Virus genome (UHGV): UHGV-0149790
Origin: a virus
Direction: 5' to 3' (one strand)
Length of the DNA: 21,903 nucleotides
Shown here: positions 1-8,372 of the stretch, in pieces
Position numbering within the stretch: position 1 is the first letter of the stretch
Layout: every line of letters starts with the position of its first letter
The notes under the pieces: model-generated
Told to the model about the DNA's origin: nothing
The model's database searches: none
Seen by the model: only the letters and a program-made list of their open reading frames with translations
Position numbers and translations under genes: made by a program

Positions 1-272
1 TCGCTAAGGCGAACGCTTTTTTCACCTCTGGAATAAATCACGGTGCCGATGTGGGTTTTACGCCTGCGGCCGGAAACCGTAGGGGCGATAATTTCTCGCT
101 TAATCGGTTTTTGCGGGGTGATGCCTGGTACAGGGGCCGGACGTGGCGCCGCTACGAACACGGAACGGCTACGGGCGCGCGCACCGGCATTCATGCGCCA
201 GAGAATAACGGGGAGCCAGTTGCAGCCATCATCCGGTTTTACTGGTTTTGGGTAATTTAAATTCGTGGTCAT
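1..272 (-). CDS. hypothetical protein, 3'-truncated by the window edge (next gene after the helicase in the early-right operon)
   Basis: ATG at 272-270 on the minus strand directly preceded by the recurring GAGGAAAGACC motif; frame stays open to position 1 (MTTNLNYPKPVKPDDG...). Absent from the supplied track because it has no stop inside the window. Confidence 0.4.
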   Translation of the reverse strand, partial: MTTNLNYPKPVKPDDGCNWLPVILWRMNAGARARSRSVFVAAPRPAPVPGITPQKPIKREIIAPTVSGRRRKTHIGTVIYSRGEKSVRLS

Positions 273-310
273 TGGTCTTTCCTCAGTTAAATCGCGCTGG
301 TCAGGCGCGG

Positions 311-1699
311 TTAAAATGCATCGGTATTGAATTTCTCTGAGTATTTACGGGGTTGTTTCCGGGGTTTCGCGGCCTCCAGTTGGATACGTGTTTTCTCTTT
401 GCCAACATGCTGATCCATTGACAGAAAGTGTCCGTTTTTAAATTCCTGATAAATAATTGCGCCTGCGGCGCTGAAGCGGCTTTTACCCAGGATAATTTCA
501 GCGACGCCAGCCGCCGGGCTTTCCGGGTTGTAAACCTCATCGCGGTACAGAAACATGATGCTGTCGGCGTCCTGCTCAATGGAACCGGAATCGCGCAGGT
601 CTGACATGACCGGGCGGCGCTGGGCCGCCGGGCGGGAATCCACGGCGCGGGAAAGCTGGCTAAGCGCGAACGTCGGCGTATGCAGGCGCATAGCCATAGT
701 TTTTAGGTTTCGGGATATGTGGGCGATCGCGAGGTCGTTACGCTCTGCCTTCGGTTTTTTTATCAGGCCAAGGTAATCGACAACGATCATCGCCAGATGC
801 GGATACCGGCGCTTATGCGTTTCGGCAACGGCGCGGATTTGCTCAATCGTCAGATCGGTAGCATCAACGATCCAGATATCTCGCCCGTTCATGGTCTCCA
901 TGGCCGCGGTAAAGCGCGCCCAGTCCTCGTCCTGCATATCGAGGGGATTACGCAGGCGTGACACTGACATGTTGCCAGAACCCGCCAGAGAGCGTTCTAC
1001 GATTTGCGCAGCGGCCATTTCCATGCTGAATATCAACGCGCCACCGCCAGCAGCGGTAACACCATCGACAATCTTCAGCGCAAATTCTGTTTTTCCCATG
1101 CCCGGACGCCCGGCGACGACAATCAAATCCTGCAGGTTGATTCCGCCGGTCGCATCGTCCAGTTCCTCGATCCCGGTTTTCAGGTTGCGAGTACCCTCTT
1201 CGCCGTCCATGCGCTTCTGCATGGTTTCCATGTACACCGGCAATAATTCGCTCATGTGTACCGGCTGCACGTCGCCAGTGTCGCCGGTCATGTCCAGCAG
1301 CTGCGCCACGGCAGTTTCGACAATCTGATCGCGCTGCTCCTGATTATTCGCCTGGCGGATACCATCAGCACCATGTTGCAGTAATTCAGCCATACGGCGG
1401 CTGCGCCACGCCTTCACCATTTTCCCGGCGTAACCTTTCAGGTTTGGTACCGTTGCGGGCATACGCGAAATCTCTGATAAATCAGCCAGGCTACTCCCTC
1501 CCAGAGCCTCACTGACAAACAGCATATCGATCAGACCGTTCGTCAACGCCTGTTTTTTGATTTCCGAGAAGGCGCGACGATGAAAAACAATGCTGAATGA
1601 TTCTTCAGGCGTCGATGCGATCACGTCGAAAGCGTCCGGACTTGCTCCACCGTTAAGCAGTCCAGCCAGTACACAAGATTCCAGTTCCTGCGGAGTCAT
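311..1699 (-). CDS. DnaB-family replicative DNA helicase (lambda P / P22 gene 12 position)
   Basis: 462-aa ORF with Walker A GRPGMGKT and DnaB-like RecA-fold motifs (FSMEMAAAQIVERSLAG, IVVDYLGLI, SQLSRAVDSR); its start overlaps the stop of the upstream replication gene at 1696-1699. Confidence 0.9.
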   Translation of the reverse strand: MTPQELESCVLAGLLNGGASPDAFDVIASTPEESFSIVFHRRAFSEIKKQALTNGLIDMLFVSEALGGSSLADLSEISRMPATVPNLKGYAGKMVKAWRSRRMAELLQHGADGIRQANNQEQRDQIVETAVAQLLDMTGDTGDVQPVHMSELLPVYMETMQKRMDGEEGTRNLKTGIEELDDATGGINLQDLIVVAGRPGMGKTEFALKIVDGVTAAGGGALIFSMEMAAAQIVERSLAGSGNMSVSRLRNPLDMQDEDWARFTAAMETMNGRDIWIVDATDLTIEQIRAVAETHKRRYPHLAMIVVDYLGLIKKPKAERNDLAIAHISRNLKTMAMRLHTPTFALSQLSRAVDSRPAAQRRPVMSDLRDSGSIEQDADSIMFLYRDEVYNPESPAAGVAEIILGKSRFSAAGAIIYQEFKNGHFLSMDQHVGKEKTRIQLEAAKPRKQPRKYSEKFNTDAF

Positions 1700-2688
1700 A
1701 GCGATCCCTCACGAGTTTTACGCAATGTTTCAGGCTTCATCAGGTAGTCAAAGCTGGCGCGCCATCCGCCATTTTCACCAAAGTAAAAATCGGAGGCGTC
1801 AGCGCGGAATTTTTCGAAATAGCCCAGAAATGCGCCCGTGGTTTTGTTTTTCATATGGGCGGCCAGACGGGTGATCATCCGGCGGCGGTCGGTGTCGAGT
1901 TCAGCAGCAGGCAGAGCGTCAGCAAAAATTTCGTTGTAGCCGTTCATAACGGCTTCGGGGTCAATATCGGCTTCGGTCACCGCCCATGCTTCAGCGTCAG
2001 CGAGATAACCATCAAAGCGGTTTACCCGGCAGATGTTCGCTGGCTTCGGCAGGCTATCGCCACGGCGGCGCCATGTGGCCAGCACCCAGCGGATAACTAA
2101 CTGCAATTCGTCCAGGGTGTAACCTTCCCGGGTGGTGGTCGGCGTCAGCATCATCACAAACGGTTTCAGGTCACGGCAGCGGGTACCGGTTTGCTCGTTG
2201 TAAAATTCCAGCGCTTTTTGTGCATCAGAAAGAATTAACTCAACGCCTTCCCCCTCTAAGGGGTTAGGGGTATATATATTCTCTGTAGTATTCTCTGTAA
2301 GAAAGTTTGCTGGTTTTCCACTTACTTGTTTGCTGGTTTTCCGCATTCCAGTATGTGGTTTTTCCGCATTCTTGTTTGCGGCTACAAGTGATTGAAATAA
2401 AACATCATTATCAATCTTGTAGAAAAGACGAGCAGGTACACCTTTCTTTTTTTCCAGCAGTACACCAATTGAGCGAAGTTTCTTACGCGCCCCCTCCTGT
2501 TCGTAACGGGAAAGGCCTGTTTCTTCCTCCCATTCTTCCTGGGTTTTATATACCCATCCATCATCGTCGGATCGGTTAGTCCAGTAAGTCATTTGAGACA
2601 GGAACAGTGCAGCCGTCACACCGATATTCAGGCGAATGAAACTACGCTGGAAGGCGATCGGCCTGTCGAGTAATGGCAAAATATTCAT
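1696..2688 (-). CDS. phage replication initiation protein (O-like replisome organiser) with origin iterons inside the coding sequence
   Basis: 330-aa ORF; two-domain layout with a Lys/Thr/Asn-rich linker coinciding with a direct-repeat array at 2305-2383; sits immediately upstream of, and coupled to, the helicase gene. Confidence 0.75.
   Translation of the reverse strand: MNILPLLDRPIAFQRSFIRLNIGVTAALFLSQMTYWTNRSDDDGWVYKTQEEWEEETGLSRYEQEGARKKLRSIGVLLEKKKGVPARLFYKIDNDVLFQSLVAANKNAEKPHTGMRKTSKQVSGKPANFLTENTTENIYTPNPLEGEGVELILSDAQKALEFYNEQTGTRCRDLKPFVMMLTPTTTREGYTLDELQLVIRWVLATWRRRGDSLPKPANICRVNRFDGYLADAEAWAVTEADIDPEAVMNGYNEIFADALPAAELDTDRRRMITRLAAHMKNKTTGAFLGYFEKFRADASDFYFGENGGWRASFDYLMKPETLRKTREGSL
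2266..2430. repeat. ori-like element: four iterons at 23-bp spacing flanked by AT-rich DNA
   Basis: GTTTGCTGGTTTTCC-like repeats starting at 2305, 2328, 2351 and 2374; CTCTGTA x2 at 2281-2299; AT-rich stretch 2391-2430; all inside the O-like gene, as with lambda ori. Confidence 0.55.
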
Positions 2689-2690
2689 AC

Positions 2691-2912
2691 TCAGATCCCC
2701 AGCGAGTCAGCCAGCTGGCGGCAGGCGATTTCATATTCTTTCTGGGTGAGTCCCGCTTCCTGCAGGTCTGCTTTGCGCAGCTCGTAGCGTTCCCAGATTG
2801 TCAGCGCAGCAGCGCGACGTTCCTCGAAAATCAATTCGATATCTTCTATCGGGACTTGTACCCCGTTCCGGCGAAACCCGTTCCGCCAGGTGATGCGGTC
2901 TTGTGTTCTCAT
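2691..2912 (-). CDS. small hypothetical protein (73 aa) between the CII-like gene and the replication initiator
   Basis: ATG at 2912-2910 preceded by an exact GAGGAAAGACCA motif; stop overlaps the RBS of the O-like gene. The 162-aa track ORF 2691..3179 is an upstream extension that clashes with the CII-like gene. Confidence 0.5.
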   Translation of the reverse strand: MRTQDRITWRNGFRRNGVQVPIEDIELIFEERRAAALTIWERYELRKADLQEAGLTQKEYEIACRQLADSLGI

Positions 2913-2932
2913 TGGTCTTTCCTCGGTACAGG

Positions 2933-3379
2933 TTAAACGCTGGTCAGGCGCTGTGTTTCTCGCATAGCTTGCAATGCTCTGGCGACTTGCTGCGGCCCGT
3001 CTCTGGCGTCGAGTAACAACGCGATAATCGCCGCGGCAAACTCGCGAATGGCCACACAAATTAAATACTGAGTGGACATACCCAAGCGCGCGTAACGTTC
3101 TGCCGGCAGCGCCGCTTCCATCGCTTTGACCAGCGCCAGAGTTTTGGCTCTCGCGGCTTTGGTCTCGCCTCGCAACCAACGAAAAATTTGTTGGCGGTTG
3201 TTGTTGATTGCCCGCCAGTCGGCGTTTCCATCTGCATCTTCGATCTGGTGCAGCTTCAGCGAACCGGTATTACCACCAAGACGAAACCACATGCGGCTTA
3301 TCTCGATAGCAACCAGCTCCTGCCCGCTTTCCGCTGCCCAGTTAAAGATCTCTCGTTTAAGTTCTTCGAGGTATTCCAC
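2933..3379 (-). CDS. CII-position regulatory protein, possibly YdaT-family
   Basis: 148-aa helical ORF directly downstream of the Cro-like gene; GTG start at 3379 with AGGAGA 9 nt upstream. Family assignment is from recalled similarity only. Confidence 0.5.
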   Translation of the reverse strand: MEYLEELKREIFNWAAESGQELVAIEISRMWFRLGGNTGSLKLHQIEDADGNADWRAINNNRQQIFRWLRGETKAARAKTLALVKAMEAALPAERYARLGMSTQYLICVAIREFAAAIIALLLDARDGPQQVARALQAMRETQRLTSV

Positions 3380-3441
3380 TTCGAGCGTCTCCTGTCGCTG
3401 AAAATTGATTAAGCGTAATCAGATTTCGATGCCGCTAATTG

Positions 3442-3636
3442 TTAAGCTGATTTGGCTGGCAGTTGGTAAGCCTTTGGGTCATAAACAAGTTCGCCATCAG
3501 TCATCAGAGACAAACGAGCCGCTTTACCTTCAGGAACCAAACGCCCCCACGCATAGACAGTAGGAGCCTTAACGCCAGCGGCCTCAGCCAGTTTTCTCTT
3601 ACTACCAAAATATTTGATCGCATCAGTTGTTAACAT
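3442..3636 (-). CDS. Cro-like HTH regulator (DicC/YdaS type)
   Basis: 64-aa ORF (YFGSKRKLAEAAGV...LVPEGKAARL...GELVYDPKAY) divergent from the repressor gene; AGGAGG RBS; promoter and operators immediately upstream. Confidence 0.75.
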   Translation of the reverse strand: MLTTDAIKYFGSKRKLAEAAGVKAPTVYAWGRLVPEGKAARLSLMTDGELVYDPKAYQLPAKSA

Positions 3637-3650
3637 GAAACACCCTCCTG

Positions 3651-3714
3651 TTAGATTTTTCTAACAAATTAGGTGTTCGAGATAACGAAGTCAAGGAAAT
3701 TTAGAATTATCTAA
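3651..3714. promoter_or_regulatory. OR-like region: two 14-bp palindromic operators and a pR-like promoter for the Cro-like gene
   Basis: TTAGATTTTTCTAA (3651-3664) and TTAGAATTATCTAA (3701-3714). Minus-strand promoter: -35 TTGACT (3694-3689), 17-bp spacer, -10 TAATTT (3671-3666). The first operator overlaps the -10/start site; the second abuts the repressor start codon. Confidence 0.6.
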
Positions 3715-3716
3715 CT

Positions 3717-4103
3717 ATGACAATGCCAGGTGAGCGCATCAGAGCGCGTAGAAAAGATCTCAAACTTACTCAGCGCGCTTTAGCGAAGCTGGTTAACGTC
3801 GCGCACGTCACTATCTCCCAGTGGGAGACCGGTGATAGTGAGCCTGGCGGAAAAAACCTTTTCGCTTTAAGTAACGCACTTCAATGCAGCCCTACCTGGA
3901 TACTTTACGGCGATGAAGCCGCCACTCCGGGAACCCCGGTAGACACCCCGCCGCCATTAGATGAACGAGAAACAGAGCTTTTAAAACTCTTTTCGTCACT
4001 CCCAGAATCTGAAAAAGAGCGGCATTTAACGGAACTTCGCGAAAAAGTAGACGGTTTCAATCGTTTATTTGAGGAGTTACTGCAAGCCCGCAAACAAAAA
4101 TAA
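3717..4103 (+). CDS. short HTH-XRE prophage repressor (DicA-like; no peptidase S24 domain)
   Basis: 128 aa; N-terminal HTH (GERIRARRKDLKLTQRALAKL...ISQWETGDSEPGGKNLFALSNALQCSPTWILYGDE) closely resembles recalled DicA; no Ala-Gly/Ser-Lys autocleavage module; divergent from the Cro-like gene. Confidence 0.85.
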   Translation: MTMPGERIRARRKDLKLTQRALAKLVNVAHVTISQWETGDSEPGGKNLFALSNALQCSPTWILYGDEAATPGTPVDTPPPLDERETELLKLFSSLPESEKERHLTELREKVDGFNRLFEELLQARKQK

Positions 4104-4168
4104 TCCCTTTCTAATCAGTTAGATGCATTTTTTTACGCCCATTGTGTTCGTTTTCTCTAATTTAATCA

Positions 4169-4197
4169 TTGACCAAATTGTTAGATTTATCTAAATT
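4169..4197 (+). promoter_or_regulatory. pL-like promoter with an embedded operator
   Basis: -35 TTGACC (4169-4174), 17-bp spacer, -10 TAAATT (4192-4197); third operator copy TTAGATTTATCTAA at 4181-4194 lies in the spacer/-10. Confidence 0.5.
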
Positions 4198-4348
4198 ACA
4201 TCACATCAACGACGCACTAACCACGCGGCAGTTGTTCAGAAACAGTTCTGACAGTCCGGAAAGACGGGCGCGAATTCTTCGGGTCGCCGACAGTACGATG
4301 ACATGCGGGAAAGACCGCAACGAATGCGAATTGCTGTGTGTAGTCTTG

Positions 4349-4373
4349 GCCCGGGCGCCCCGGGCATTTTTTT
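4349..4373 (+). terminator. intrinsic terminator about 150 nt downstream of the pL-like promoter
   Basis: Perfect 7-bp GC stem GCCCGGG-cgc-CCCGGGC (4349-4365) followed by a run of seven T (4367-4373). Confidence 0.7.
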
Positions 4374-4454
4374 AAAGCATTCACGCAGTAACGAGGAAAG
4401 ACCAATGGGGCTGACCACCCTGACAGCCGGGAAAGACCGGCAACCTTCAGGCGT

Positions 4455-4476
4455 AAAAAAGCCCACCGAAGTGGGC
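4455..4476 (-). terminator. intrinsic terminator on the minus strand, convergent with the plus-strand terminator
   Basis: GCCCAC-cgaa-GTGGGC hairpin (4461-4476) flanked by AAAAAA at 4455-4460, i.e. a T-run after the stem when read on the minus strand. Confidence 0.5.
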
Positions 4477-4597
4477 TAATTTACCCGGGACAGTGACCAA
4501 ACCGCCCAGAATGCTACAGGGGACCAACCCTGTAGCGAGGAAAGACCAACGACAGAGCCGCTGATCGGCTCTGAGTATATATCATCAAGGAGTCGCT

Positions 4598-4921
4598 ATG
4601 GAAGCGCTTACCATCCCCGTAACTATTTACGTTATGGCCACAACCAACCCATATCTACCAACGTCTTATCACTCATTCACCTGTGACATGTCACAGCAAT
4701 ACCCTGATCTGTATGTCCTCGTTACTACCAAAACGGTAGAGGTTGCCATTCCAGCTTTAGAGCCAATCGACATTATTGGTATGCAGGTTAATGCCCTTCG
4801 TGCGAAGAAAGAGAAAATCTCTGCCGAAGCAAAGAAGGAGCTGGGTGTTATTGAAGACCAGATTCAGCAGCTGCTGTGCATCGATCACTCTCCAATTGAA
4901 GAAAGCGACGTACCGTTTTAA
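4598..4921 (+). CDS. hypothetical protein, first gene of the left operon
   Basis: 107-aa ORF with AAGGAG RBS 6 nt upstream; acidic and not arginine-rich, so not N-like. Confidence 0.6.
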   Translation: MEALTIPVTIYVMATTNPYLPTSYHSFTCDMSQQYPDLYVLVTTKTVEVAIPALEPIDIIGMQVNALRAKKEKISAEAKKELGVIEDQIQQLLCIDHSPIEESDVPF

Positions 4922-4965
4922 TTAACCGGCGCGTGACCTGCGCCAGTAACCAAGAGGAAAGACCA

Positions 4966-7164
4966 ATGACCATCTACAACGGCTCATTTGAGCCAAAGAA
5001 ATCGGCGATTAAAGACTGCGGCGCCGTGCAGCTGGCGATCGCCATCGATGCGCCAAACAAAAAAGTGGCCGAAAGCATTATGACCGGCAAACTCTGGGAA
5101 TCATACCCGGCCAATGGTGACAACTATTTCAAACCGAAACTGTGGGAACACGTTGAAGGCCAGCCGCTGCCGACCGTTGGCCAGTTCGATGAGTCATTCG
5201 CCCAGCAGCATACTTTTGACGGTGAAAAATGGGTTTCTACTGCGCAGGATAGCGCTTCCGGAAGTGGTGCAGGTTTACCTGCCGACGATGAAGTGATCGA
5301 CCTGATGACCGTTTCCCCTGATGAACGCTTTGCTGCCGTCCTGCTTTTTAGTACCGCGGCGATTGATGGCCATCTTTATTCTCAGGTTGTGGATTATCTG
5401 GATAATCTGAAAAACCACGATGGGGAATTTGAAGAGGAAGATCGCTTTAACTTTAATGTTCTGTGTGCCCTGCAAAATAACTTCCCGGTTCAAAGCATGC
5501 ATGTGGAAGGTCTGAACAATCTTATTCAGGGTATTTTCTCCCACTTTGAAAACCAGACGCCGGGCAAAGCGGCTATCTCTCAGTTCGTTAAACGCTGGCT
5601 TGAGAATCCGGGCAAGCGCGACGAACTGGCCCCCGGCGTATATAAAAATACCGCTCTCAGCACCAGCACCAGCACCAGCACCAGCACCAGCACCAGCACC
5701 AGCACCAGCACCAGCACCGATGATAAAACACCCGTGGTAATTTCTAAGCGCGGATATAAACACACTTATGCAACGCTGGATCAGGAGATCGCTACCGCCC
5801 TTCTCCCGCTGGCGCCTGATGCGCCGGTACTATCCGGAAACCTTCTGGACGCTAAGAAGATGATTTCCGATGACCGGGAAGATTTTAAACGCTGGTCAGC
5901 ATCGCTGCACACCACGCCGCAGATACTCAAATACGACCGCGCCAGCATCTTCGGCGTGGTACAAAACGTACCGGCGAAAGATACCTACCATTTCCCTGAC
6001 AGCCTGCGCCGCCATATCGATTCATGGCTGGCGGCCAACGGCCGCTTTGAGGAAACCGAGACAGGATCCGTTAAACAACCAGAGGCGACGCAAAATACCG
6101 CCTCAAACGTGGGCGAAAAAGTGGAAGCGCAGCAGCCGGTTGTAACCGACACCCAGGCCAAACAGGCGCGTGAGACGCTCAATGATATGGGTTATGGCGT
6201 ATATGCCTCTGGTGAAGGTGCAGAGCCGGAAGAGAAGTTAAGCGTTAAGGCTGAAAAACTGGCTGATGATTCCGAGCGTTTAGCAAAACAAATCGCTCAC
6301 GCTGAAAGCCTGCCTAACGCTGAGGATGTTGTGCAGGCTGTCGGAAAACCAATCATCGGGGAAGACAATTTAGACCTCTGGAAACGCGTATTTAAAACCG
6401 ACGAAAGGTTTACTAAGGCTTTCACACAGAACGGCGGTGGCACCTCGATCAACGGTACCTACATGACCATGCTTGCCACACGTGAGTTTGGCCCTAAGGG
6501 CATCGGCTGGGGCGTGGATATTGTTGAAGAGCGTTTCGATATTGGCGCGCCGATCACTCGGCAAGTAAAAGGCAAAGACAACAACGCATCGTGGGAGCTG
6601 GTTCTTGATGGGAATGGTAATACCGTCAACGAACAGCACCATGTTGTGACTGTCCGGCTCTGGTACATCCTGAACGGAGTACGAGGTGAGGAAACAGCAT
6701 ACGGCTGTACACCCTACATTTACGGTAGTAAATACGGGATCACCTGCGACGGCGAAGCAGCCAAAAAATCACTGACAGATGCGACCAAAAAAGCGTTATC
6801 CGGCCTCGGATTCAGTGGCGATATCTTTATGGGGCTTTACGACAATCTGGAGTACCGCCAGAAGAACAAGGCCGAGTTTGACCTGAAGAACGCCAGCGAA
6901 TCAGCCGAAGATGCAGCACGGCTCCGCCAGGAGTTTGACGATAAATTAAGCCGCGTTGCTAATACCCTGGCGCATGGCGTGACGGTGAACGAAATCAACG
7001 GTGTGTTTTCCCCTATCGCACGTGAGATCGATGTTCACATTAAAGCCGCCCAGGCCAACGGCGACACGCAGCATGAACGTTATCTGTCTGGCCGGCTCCG
7101 CCGACTCATCTCCATCAAAGATGGGCGCATTAAAGAACTGAATAAAGCCGAGGAGAAAGCATAA
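4966..7164 (+). CDS. large recombination protein: N-terminal region of unknown function, (Ser-Thr)10 linker, C-terminal Rad52-like single-strand annealing domain
   Basis: ATG at 4966 preceded by GAGGAAAGACCA; C-terminal motif GCTPYIYGSKYGITCDGEAAKKSLTDATKKALSGLGFSGDIFMGLYD matches the Rad52/Sak signature (K-x-A-V-T-D-x-x-K-R-A-L-x-x-F-G); 733 aa from this start. Confidence 0.7.
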   Translation: MTIYNGSFEPKKSAIKDCGAVQLAIAIDAPNKKVAESIMTGKLWESYPANGDNYFKPKLWEHVEGQPLPTVGQFDESFAQQHTFDGEKWVSTAQDSASGSGAGLPADDEVIDLMTVSPDERFAAVLLFSTAAIDGHLYSQVVDYLDNLKNHDGEFEEEDRFNFNVLCALQNNFPVQSMHVEGLNNLIQGIFSHFENQTPGKAAISQFVKRWLENPGKRDELAPGVYKNTALSTSTSTSTSTSTSTSTSTSTDDKTPVVISKRGYKHTYATLDQEIATALLPLAPDAPVLSGNLLDAKKMISDDREDFKRWSASLHTTPQILKYDRASIFGVVQNVPAKDTYHFPDSLRRHIDSWLAANGRFEETETGSVKQPEATQNTASNVGEKVEAQQPVVTDTQAKQARETLNDMGYGVYASGEGAEPEEKLSVKAEKLADDSERLAKQIAHAESLPNAEDVVQAVGKPIIGEDNLDLWKRVFKTDERFTKAFTQNGGGTSINGTYMTMLATREFGPKGIGWGVDIVEERFDIGAPITRQVKGKDNNASWELVLDGNGNTVNEQHHVVTVRLWYILNGVRGEETAYGCTPYIYGSKYGITCDGEAAKKSLTDATKKALSGLGFSGDIFMGLYDNLEYRQKNKAEFDLKNASESAEDAARLRQEFDDKLSRVANTLAHGVTVNEINGVFSPIAREIDVHIKAAQANGDTQHERYLSGRLRRLISIKDGRIKELNKAEEKA
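5659..5718. repeat. perfect hexanucleotide tandem repeat (AGCACC)x10 encoding (Ser-Thr)10
   Basis: Ten uninterrupted AGCACC units read directly in the sequence, in frame within the 4966..7164 CDS. Confidence 0.95.
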
Positions 7165-7966: not shown

Positions 7967-8191
7967 ATGCTACGTTGGCAACCAGGCACACTTTTACTTT
8001 CAGATTTCGATATCAAAATTGGCAGGCTATCAGCCAGCGTTAGAAAGAGGACTCTGACCCAGTCCGATATCCAACGCGCTTGCGATACGGCAGACAACGC
8101 GATAGCCGGCATGCTGAGGAAAGACCATGAGACACGATCACGACATCATCACCAGAGAGGAAATGATCGAACTGACGGGGACCCCACTTAA
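7967..8191 (+). CDS. hypothetical small basic protein
   Basis: 74-aa ORF whose ATG sits in the 3' arm of an 11-bp perfect inverted repeat; overlaps the excisionase-like ORF in another frame; weak support. Confidence 0.3.
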   Translation: MLRWQPGTLLLSDFDIKIGRLSASVRKRTLTQSDIQRACDTADNAIAGMLRKDHETRSRHHHQRGNDRTDGDPT

Positions 8192-8372
8192 ATCGAGGCA
8201 GTGTGAAGCGCTACGTCGGGCCGGTGTCTTTTTCATGGAAAGGGCAGACGGCCATCCTAAAACGACGTGGGGCCATTTCCTGAACCCGATTAAATACCGC
8301 AACCAGCAGGAAGAGACGGTGCGGGAGGAAGAACCAGACTTCGGAGCTATCTTTAATGGCCGGAAAACGTAA
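8127..8372 (+). CDS. excisionase-like DNA-binding protein
   Basis: 81-aa ORF immediately upstream of and overlapping the integrase start; the ITREEMIELTG...ALRRAGVFF segment fits small winged-helix excisionases; positional support. Confidence 0.5.
   Translation: MRHDHDIITREEMIELTGTPLKSRQCEALRRAGVFFMERADGHPKTTWGHFLNPIKYRNQQEETVREEEPDFGAIFNGRKT

Follow-up and report, generated by a model that had tools for sequence, protein, structure and literature searches.

The window analyzed here, a 21,903-nt stretch of the virus genome UHGV-0149790, spans the early region, along with part of the structural region, of a temperate lambdoid enterobacterial (pro)phage. Its early genes form two divergent operons. 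Rightward, a PL-like promoter drives, in order, a gene for a protein of 107 amino acids (aa), a RecE-like exonuclease, gp157, an excisionase and an integrase; leftward, on the other side of the cI-type repressor gene, lie a P22-type cro, a cII/YdaT-like gene, a 73-aa open reading frame (ORF), an O-like replication initiator and dnaB. Four genes spread over these operons begin with a 15-nt motif, GAGGAAAGACCAATG, or a close variant of it, and further copies without genes are found in the PL leader. We computed the statistics and gene specificity of this motif, the structure and strand of an RNA encoded opposite the PL leader, the complementarity of the two and their co-occurrence among related phages. 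Taken together, these results make it probable that the motif is the shared target site of a multi-target phage small RNA that represses translation.

A motif tied to particular gene starts

The first 14 nucleotides of the motif, GAGGAAAGACCAAT, occur exactly at 271-284(-), 2911-2924(-), 4393-4406(+) and 4954-4967(+), each time followed by a G that completes an ATG, and once more with a single mismatch at 4537-4550(+), where AAC-G replaces AAT-G. A sixth copy, GAGGAAAGACCATG at 8116-8129(+), stands at the start of the excisionase gene and was absent from the preliminary description of this DNA. Six matches compare with 0.09 expected by chance, a number reached in none of 100 shuffles, so that the repetition reported there is real. 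The 9-nt core, GGAAAGACC, occurs exactly eight times, against 4.4 occurrences expected when up to one mismatch is allowed. The core also occurs in 23S rRNA at positions 2056-2064, the A2058 site to which macrolides, Erm and TLR13 bind (ACGGAAAGACCCCGU); with no other support for a link, mimicry of 23S rRNA was discarded as probably a coincidence.

That the copies end in a start codon, as had been claimed, is literally true but misleading at two of them. The start of the copy at 4393-4407 is not conserved among relatives, in which ATG becomes ACG, AGC, AAA or TGG, and it opens an ORF of only 24 codons; it is probably no gene start, and the mini-ORF at 4405-4479 was rejected as a gene on account of its unconserved start codon. 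The other, the ACG copy at 4537-4551, serves as the template of a predicted small-RNA seed described below.

Among relatives, the motif marks gene families with great precision. A search for the 15-mer in viral contigs gave at least 120 loci, and among the matches listed about 45 loci have at least four cores. Within this family of loci, a core lies no more than 30 nt from the start of 60 of 60 exonuclease, 57 of 57 73-aa ORF and 46 of 47 excisionase orthologues, the sole exception having one mismatch. The phrog_4183 gene downstream of dnaB constitutes a fourth tagged family. No core was found at the starts of cI, cro, the cII-like gene, O, DnaB, p107 (the 107-aa gene), gp157 or integrase (0 of 24-60 orthologues each). 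The motif lies on the transcribed strand in every case, in a fixed register to the start codon, which mostly follows the core by 0-1 nt. Its absence from most gene boundaries and its presence in startless leader copies tell against the suggestion that it is a module-boundary sequence.

The complete 43.9-kb genome of BUCT709, the nearest sequenced phage, holds 10 copies of the core where 0.34 are expected; eight of these fall within the early region, on the strand that is transcribed there, and the late genes have none. About half of the motif copies in relatives lie away from gene starts, arrayed in the PL leader. The motif and the complementary seed stay invariant while cI falls to a median identity of 56% and the tagged proteins to 59-63%; the conservation of a tag that persists unchanged across such widely diverged proteins cannot be put down to recent common descent.

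These observations bear on a simpler explanation, that the motif is an efficient ribosome-binding cassette or a recombination linker, spread by duplication along with an upstream hairpin and lacking a dedicated regulator. It does contain a good Shine-Dalgarno sequence (GAGG) at optimal spacing, and the 40-bp hairpin-plus-motif modules at 270-310 and 2910-2953 resemble duplicated cassettes. However, a plain ribosome-binding site needs no 14-15 invariant bases across phages with protein identities of just 55-65%, copies persist where no gene starts and most gene boundaries do without them, and the motif is perfectly complementary to a structured, terminator-bearing antisense RNA. We regard this explanation as improbable. 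The view that the motif far exceeds a generic ribosome-binding site is thus borne out by its strict gene specificity and by its invariance while the tagged proteins diverge.

A predicted small RNA opposite the PL leader

A pattern scan located a strong intrinsic terminator followed by a U6 tract on the minus strand opposite the PL leader, with no minus-strand gene nearby. The sequence predicts a small RNA of about 115 nt, running from ~4569 to ~4454 and antisense to the leader, in which a 5' hairpin is followed by the linker GUUGGUCUUUCCUC, two further hairpins and the terminator (Table 1). The linker occupies 4550-4537 of the strand opposite the ACG copy of the motif, and this copy is therefore the linker's template. 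A permissive Rfam scan of 4100-4700 matched isrB on the minus strand at 4540-4456 (28.7 bits, E 0.0037, gathering score 35). At gathering thresholds, Rfam gave no match in the window and no isrB or RprA match in 12 relatives, and no description of the RNA or its regulon was found in the searchable literature.

Comparative evidence supports both the fold and the strand. From relatives, 25 unique versions of the region were gathered, of which 22 were aligned. UGGUCUUUCCU is invariant among them, as are the loop bases UGGU and UUGGUC, between stems that vary and covary. In the two hairpins 99.2% of cells are paired and 10 of 18 pairs show a compensatory change; none of 500 shuffles matches the score, and no slid register comes close. 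The pairing of hairpin 3 is complete in the minus sense (71 of 71 cells, 24 of them G.U) as against 47 of 71 in the plus sense, and since its wobble pairs pair fully in the minus sense only, the RNA strand must be the minus strand. The seed is mostly unpaired in the predicted fold. Furthermore, all 58 upstream variants hold TATACT or TATAAT, 26-49 nt ahead of the seed core and often preceded by TGn.

The RNA and the tags travel together. A scan for hairpin 3 that made no use of the seed found 89 viral loci, and the same seed is present in 33 of 34 unique RNA variants. At least one tagged start accompanies the RNA signature at 91 of 93 loci (including those of the window, BUCT709 and Raoultella); conversely, of the 78 loci at which both strands bear start-type motifs, 77 have the RNA signature.

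Other small RNAs were considered. The svsR/co293-type prophage small RNA lies at the cI 3' end and is unrelated, and no connection was found to the Pas small RNAs. In two relatives, at 12230-12318 of L020 and 10882-10970 of L025, an Rfam sRNA-Xcc1 element scoring above threshold lies a few kb away from the early region; the search found no counterpart of it in the window.

Table 1. Features of the early region in the order of their position in the window
Feature	Position	Strand or direction	Remarks
Motif GAGGAAAGACCAATG	270-284	(-)	Starts phrog_4183 gene
phrog_4183 gene	Start ATG 272-270	(-)	Directly downstream of dnaB; 216 aa in BUCT709
Target hairpin CGCGC-CUGACCA-GCGCG	293-309	(-)	8 nt before motif
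dnaB (DnaB)	311-1699	Leftward operon
O-like replication initiator	1696-2688	Leftward operon
73-aa ORF, phrog_2465	Coding 2694-2912	(-), leftward operon	Started by motif at 2910-2924
Motif GAGGAAAGACCAATG	2910-2924	(-)	Starts 73-aa ORF
cII/YdaT-like gene	2933-3379	Leftward operon
Target hairpin AGCGC-CUGACCA-GCGUU	2936-2952	(-)	G.U pair in mRNA sense
P22-type cro	3442-3636	Leftward operon
cI-type repressor	3717-4103	Rightward
PL-like promoter TTGACC-17-TAAATT	4169-4197	(+)	Overlapped by operator TTAGATTTATCTAA at 4181-4194
Leader hairpin GUCCG-GAAAGA-CGGGC	4254-4269	(+)	Core variant GGAAAGACG at 4258; no start codon; stem covaries in relatives
Leader hairpin UGCGG-GAAAGA-CCGCA	4304-4319	(+)	Core in loop and closing pairs; no start codon
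Intrinsic terminator of PL leader, strong	4349-4373	(+)
Full motif, leader copy	4393-4407	(+)	ATG opens 24-codon ORF; candidate decoy or cis target
Leader hairpin GGGG-CUGACCA-CCCU	4407-4421	(+)	Loop as in hairpins upstream of tagged genes
Leader hairpin GCCGG-GAAAGA-CCGGC	4426-4441	(+)	Holds motif core
Small RNA, predicted, ~115 nt	4569-4454	(-)
Small RNA terminator hairpin	4477-4460	(-)	Followed by U6 tract 4459-4454
Small RNA hairpin 3, loop UUUGGUCA	4509-4485	(-)
Small RNA hairpin 2, loop UUGGUC	4536-4513	(-)
Small RNA seed/linker GUUGGUCUUUCCUC	4550-4537	(-)	Single-stranded; between 5' hairpin and two further hairpins
Motif copy, ACG replacing ATG	4537-4551	(+)	No start codon; template of small-RNA seed
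Small RNA 5' hairpin	4573-4553	(-)
Predicted -10 box TATACT	4579-4574	(-)	TGATA before it; -35 weak; predicted start near 4569-4565
107-aa gene (p107)	4598-4921	(+)	PL-driven
Target hairpin GGCGCG-UGACC-UGCGCC	4928-4944	(+)	Loop (G)UGACC(U)
Motif GAGGAAAGACCAATG	4954-4968	(+)	Starts exonuclease gene
RecE-like exonuclease, 732 aa	4966-7164	(+)	PL-driven
Motif variant GAGGAAAGACCATG	8116-8129	(+)	Starts excisionase
Excisionase, DUF4224	8127-8372	(+)	PL-driven; overlaps integrase start

Complementarity to the tagged starts

The linker can pair with the Shine-Dalgarno sequence, spacer and AUG at five start-type sites over 17-18 bp, with duplex energies of -28 to -31 kcal/mol; eight untagged starts reach -8.5 to -20.5 kcal/mol against the seed. 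These energies are restricted to the seed, whole-molecule duplex energies being uninformative.

Complementarity extends to the hairpins upstream of the tags. The GC hairpins reported in the preliminary description are indeed present at three sites, 8-11 nt before the motif. In relatives, a hairpin with a GACC loop on a stem of 4 bp or more precedes the motif in 126 of 170 unique tagged start contexts, with the loop CUGACCA in 80; these hairpins end 8-13 nt before the motif and have G.U pairs in the mRNA sense. Their loops are complementary over 5-6 bp to the small-RNA loops UUGGUC and UUUGGUCA, both of which contain YUNR-type sequences. The order of the elements is consistent with antiparallel pairing, the target presenting a hairpin and then the tag, the RNA its seed and then the loops. 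Given this order and the complementarity of hairpin, tag and loops, a tagged start resembles an abbreviated copy of the strand that faces the RNA gene.

The same features help to judge whether the motif might act as DNA, for example as a polar site recognized by a phage protein of DNA binding, recombination or replication, in which case its agreement in orientation with the divergent operons would be coincidental. Its orientation does flip around the immunity and origin region, as that of polar DNA motifs would. Nevertheless, the register to start codons is fixed, the motif sits within RNA hairpins that show compensatory changes and, in the mRNA sense, G.U pairs, and it is not palindromic; we hold a DNA-level role to be very improbable.

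The PL leader and its startless copies

The PL leader contains several hairpins, two of which (4304-4319 and 4426-4441) enclose GGAAAGACC cores at 4308 and 4430. In relatives, the array is built from the units GAGGAAAGACC, GnCUGACCAGCn and CCGG-GAAAGA-CCGG. Relatives have 2 to 4 motif copies in the interval that separates the leader terminator from the small-RNA gene.

The strong leader terminator at 4349-4373 lies ~150 nt past the PL-like promoter, ahead of any gene, and no N, put or Q-like element was recognized that could account for read-through by PL transcription. The leader segment 4274-4375 (+) also matches RprA (RF00034) with 41.6 bits (E 0.001), below the gathering score of 70, through a 21-nt identity, CGAAUUGCUGUGUGUAGUCUU, to the conserved RprA 3' region and a matching terminator. 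The terminated leader may be an RprA mimic that the phage makes each time PL fires. Several relatives have a leader insertion of 250-300 bp that separates the second GAAAGA hairpin from the RprA-like 3' part (for example, L001 7310-7570).

Structured startless copies raise a further explanation: the motif and the GACCA and GAAAGA hairpin loops could be plus-sense protein-binding sites, and the antisense RNA could merely overlap one copy. The binding factor might come from the phage, as a translational repressor or an antiterminator (the Arg-rich 73-aa protein could, for instance, act on boxB-like hairpins as N does), or from the host, with CsrA and ProQ as examples. An array of binding sites would suit the startless leader copies as well. 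The GAAAGA and UGACCA loops resemble those of boxB, which are GAAAA in lambda and GACAA in P22; the N-terminus of the 73-aa protein reads MRTQDRITWRNGFRRNG; a GGA overlapping the Shine-Dalgarno sequence is typical of CsrA sites; and the strong terminator after the first leader hairpins calls for some read-through mechanism.

However, no N, Com, RegA or other RNA-binding family was found among the early proteins (Pfam, PHROGs), the 73-aa protein is richer in Arg than its orthologues, the vicinity of the sites has no boxA-like element, and the sites stand at specific gene starts rather than just near promoters. N/nut antitermination was rejected on these grounds, its boxB-like loops notwithstanding. 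A CsrA sponge was likewise rejected: GGA alone would fit, but conservation spans 14-15 nt, far beyond GGA, and a sub-threshold rsmX match lies on the minus strand. Hairpin 3, moreover, folds in the minus sense only, which makes at least part of the array an antisense RNA. Protein binding to the plus-sense motif is thus unlikely, although less so than a cassette or a DNA site.

Proposed mechanism

The proposed steps of repression by the small RNA are as follows. The RNA would be made from its own -10 box and ended by its intrinsic terminator, antisense to the leader of the CI-controlled PL-like operon; we infer its expression and exact 5' end from these signals. Contact with a target would begin loop to loop, between the hairpin loops of the RNA and the CUGACCA loops of the target hairpins, with seed pairing next. 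Pairing of the linker over the Shine-Dalgarno sequence, spacer and AUG of the tagged mRNAs would then block ribosome binding, repressing the excisionase, the RecE-like exonuclease, the phrog_4183 gene and the 73-aa ORF, behind which follow the O-like initiator and DnaB. As the stop codon of this ORF precedes the ATG of the O-like gene by 2 nt, the replication genes may follow by translational coupling. In the PL leader, 4-6 further startless core copies, three of them in GAAAGA hairpin loops, would pair with the same linker, either as additional cis targets or as decoys that titrate the RNA once PL fires, and convergent PL transcription would supply a perfect duplex partner. The likely net effect is that excision, recombination and replication are held off in the lysogen or while lysogeny is being established. 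Shared post-transcriptional control, suggested in the preliminary description, thereby gains a likely trans-acting partner, the predicted minus-strand RNA, which that description lacked.

Several points weigh against repression by this RNA. Its 5' end is predicted solely from a -10 box with a weak -35, and a transcription start downstream of 4537, as the IsrB alignment alone suggests, would leave the seed outside the RNA. Because the seed never varies, there is no natural covariation of seed and target to prove pairing. The homology to IsrB is weak, with an Rfam score below the gathering threshold, and Gifsy-2, which encodes IsrB, is without a comparable repeated target. The data also fit a factor that binds the plus-sense motif while the antisense RNA overlaps one copy for a separate cis function. 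Repression as opposed to mere motif overlap, the involvement of any chaperone and the biological role of the RNA are inferences.

A broader role is conceivable, if rather doubtful: an RNA-level second immunity and commitment switch common to a whole family of heteroimmune enterobacterial prophages. The resident RNA would silence the excision, recombination and replication-leading genes of its own prophage and of tagged incoming relatives, whatever their repressor specificity. Excess derepressed PL leader, with its 4-6 decoys and a fully complementary antisense stretch, would sponge or destroy the RNA and free all tagged genes together. Repression by the RNA, if true, would turn RNA-based back-up immunity, control of the Xis/Int balance, heteroimmune cross-immunity and leader decoy arrays into testable ideas, and would also account for a 15-nt start sequence that is invariant across phages with widely diverged proteins and repressors.

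Phage context

Three operators of the form TTAGAN4TCTAA are present in the window, two between cro and cI (3651-3664 and 3701-3714) and one within the PL-like promoter (4181-4194). Inside the O-like gene, iteron-like direct repeats at 2277-2379 comprise three of the TTGCTGGTTTTCC type, spaced by ~23 bp, and two copies of TATTCTCTGTA; replication probably originates in this region.

Among deposited phages, BUCT708 and BUCT709 come nearest, with 86% identity. A search of genome contigs with the 107-aa protein found a single locus, on a Raoultella chromosome, and partial matches occur in 10 E. coli chromosomes. The two phage records, OM816835 and OM816834, carry a Stenotrophomonas host label, which looks doubtful given these enterobacterial relatives.

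Comparison with known systems

The closest known counterpart of the predicted RNA is IsrB of the Salmonella prophages Gifsy-1 and Gifsy-2, detected by Northern blot and primer extension as an antisense RNA between the exonuclease gene sbcA and STM1010 (PMC2330248). IsrB is associated with ProQ, and a role in lysogeny maintenance has been suggested (PMC5391140). In Gifsy-2, it lies at 5993-6080, between STM1010 and exoVIII. Like IsrB (RF01386), the RNA here is encoded opposite an early-left operon in a lambdoid prophage, near the exonuclease gene, in this case one gene (107 aa) upstream of it and with a terminator on the minus strand. Both RNAs are ~90-120 nt long and share a hairpin with a UUUGGUC loop and a near-identical terminator, GCCCxCUUCGGUGGGC plus a U tract. 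They differ in that the RNA here scores 28.7 bits where the IsrB model requires 35, extends ~40 nt further 5', with the anti-Shine-Dalgarno seed on this extension, and faces a repeated target motif, which Gifsy-2 does not have. A model built from the RNA family here gave no match in Gifsy-2 with default filters; with filters off, the IsrB locus was the best match, a weak one at 11 bits (E 0.17). Neither targets nor a function of IsrB were found reported in the literature covered, and the mechanism proposed above would give the IsrB class a candidate function.

To our knowledge, the known phage antisense RNAs (sar, OOP, C4, CI and anti-Q) control one gene or operon each, mostly in cis. Repression of at least four early genes in two divergent operons by one prophage RNA, through identical start-site tags, would constitute a compact phage-internal RNA regulon. 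In its mode of action, the proposed RNA would work like the antisense immunity RNAs C4 (P1/P7), CI (P4) and sar (P22). The P4 CI RNA is an antisense immunity RNA comparable to C4. C4 is a small structured RNA that pairs through its loops around the ribosome-binding site, targets short repeats in the phage's transcripts, blocks translation and maintains lysogeny (PMC12197685). C4 and CI are processed out of the transcript that also holds their targets, on the same strand, and control one operon (ant/icd and the P4 early operon, respectively), whereas the RNA here is convergent, has its own predicted -10 box and would target at least four separate genes in two divergent operons. The Rfam C4 model gave no match, whether the gathering threshold was applied or E values up to 10 were admitted.

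A similar architecture has been described in Cluster K mycobacteriophages, in which the start-associated sequences (SAS/ESAS), ~13 nt including the Shine-Dalgarno, lie 3-8 bp before the starts of a subset of genes (PMC3203893). About half of the SAS have an upstream inverted repeat, and their association with gene families is conserved across phages; their function is unknown (PMC3203893). The likeness, a start-associated motif with an upstream inverted repeat, is one of architecture only, and the 13-bp consensus is not matched. SAS differ in sequence and belong to phages of another host phylum, and no partner RNA has been proposed for them, whereas a complementary small RNA can be identified here. 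Adephagia, Angelica and CrimD have a single SAS on the complementary strand (PMC3203893, legend of supplementary figure S3). By analogy, such a copy could mark an antisense RNA gene, which suggests a testable explanation for these unexplained sequences.

The proposed RNA also resembles multi-target seed small RNAs in having an invariant single-stranded seed beside hairpins, a Rho-independent terminator and many targets paired at the ribosome-binding site. Small RNAs of this kind can be titrated by transcripts with multiple seed matches, as by the prophage anti-sRNA AgvB. Compared with these, pairing in the present case is exceptionally long and uniform (17-18 bp at identical sites); all known targets are phage genes, and the leader of the convergent operon is itself the candidate decoy array.

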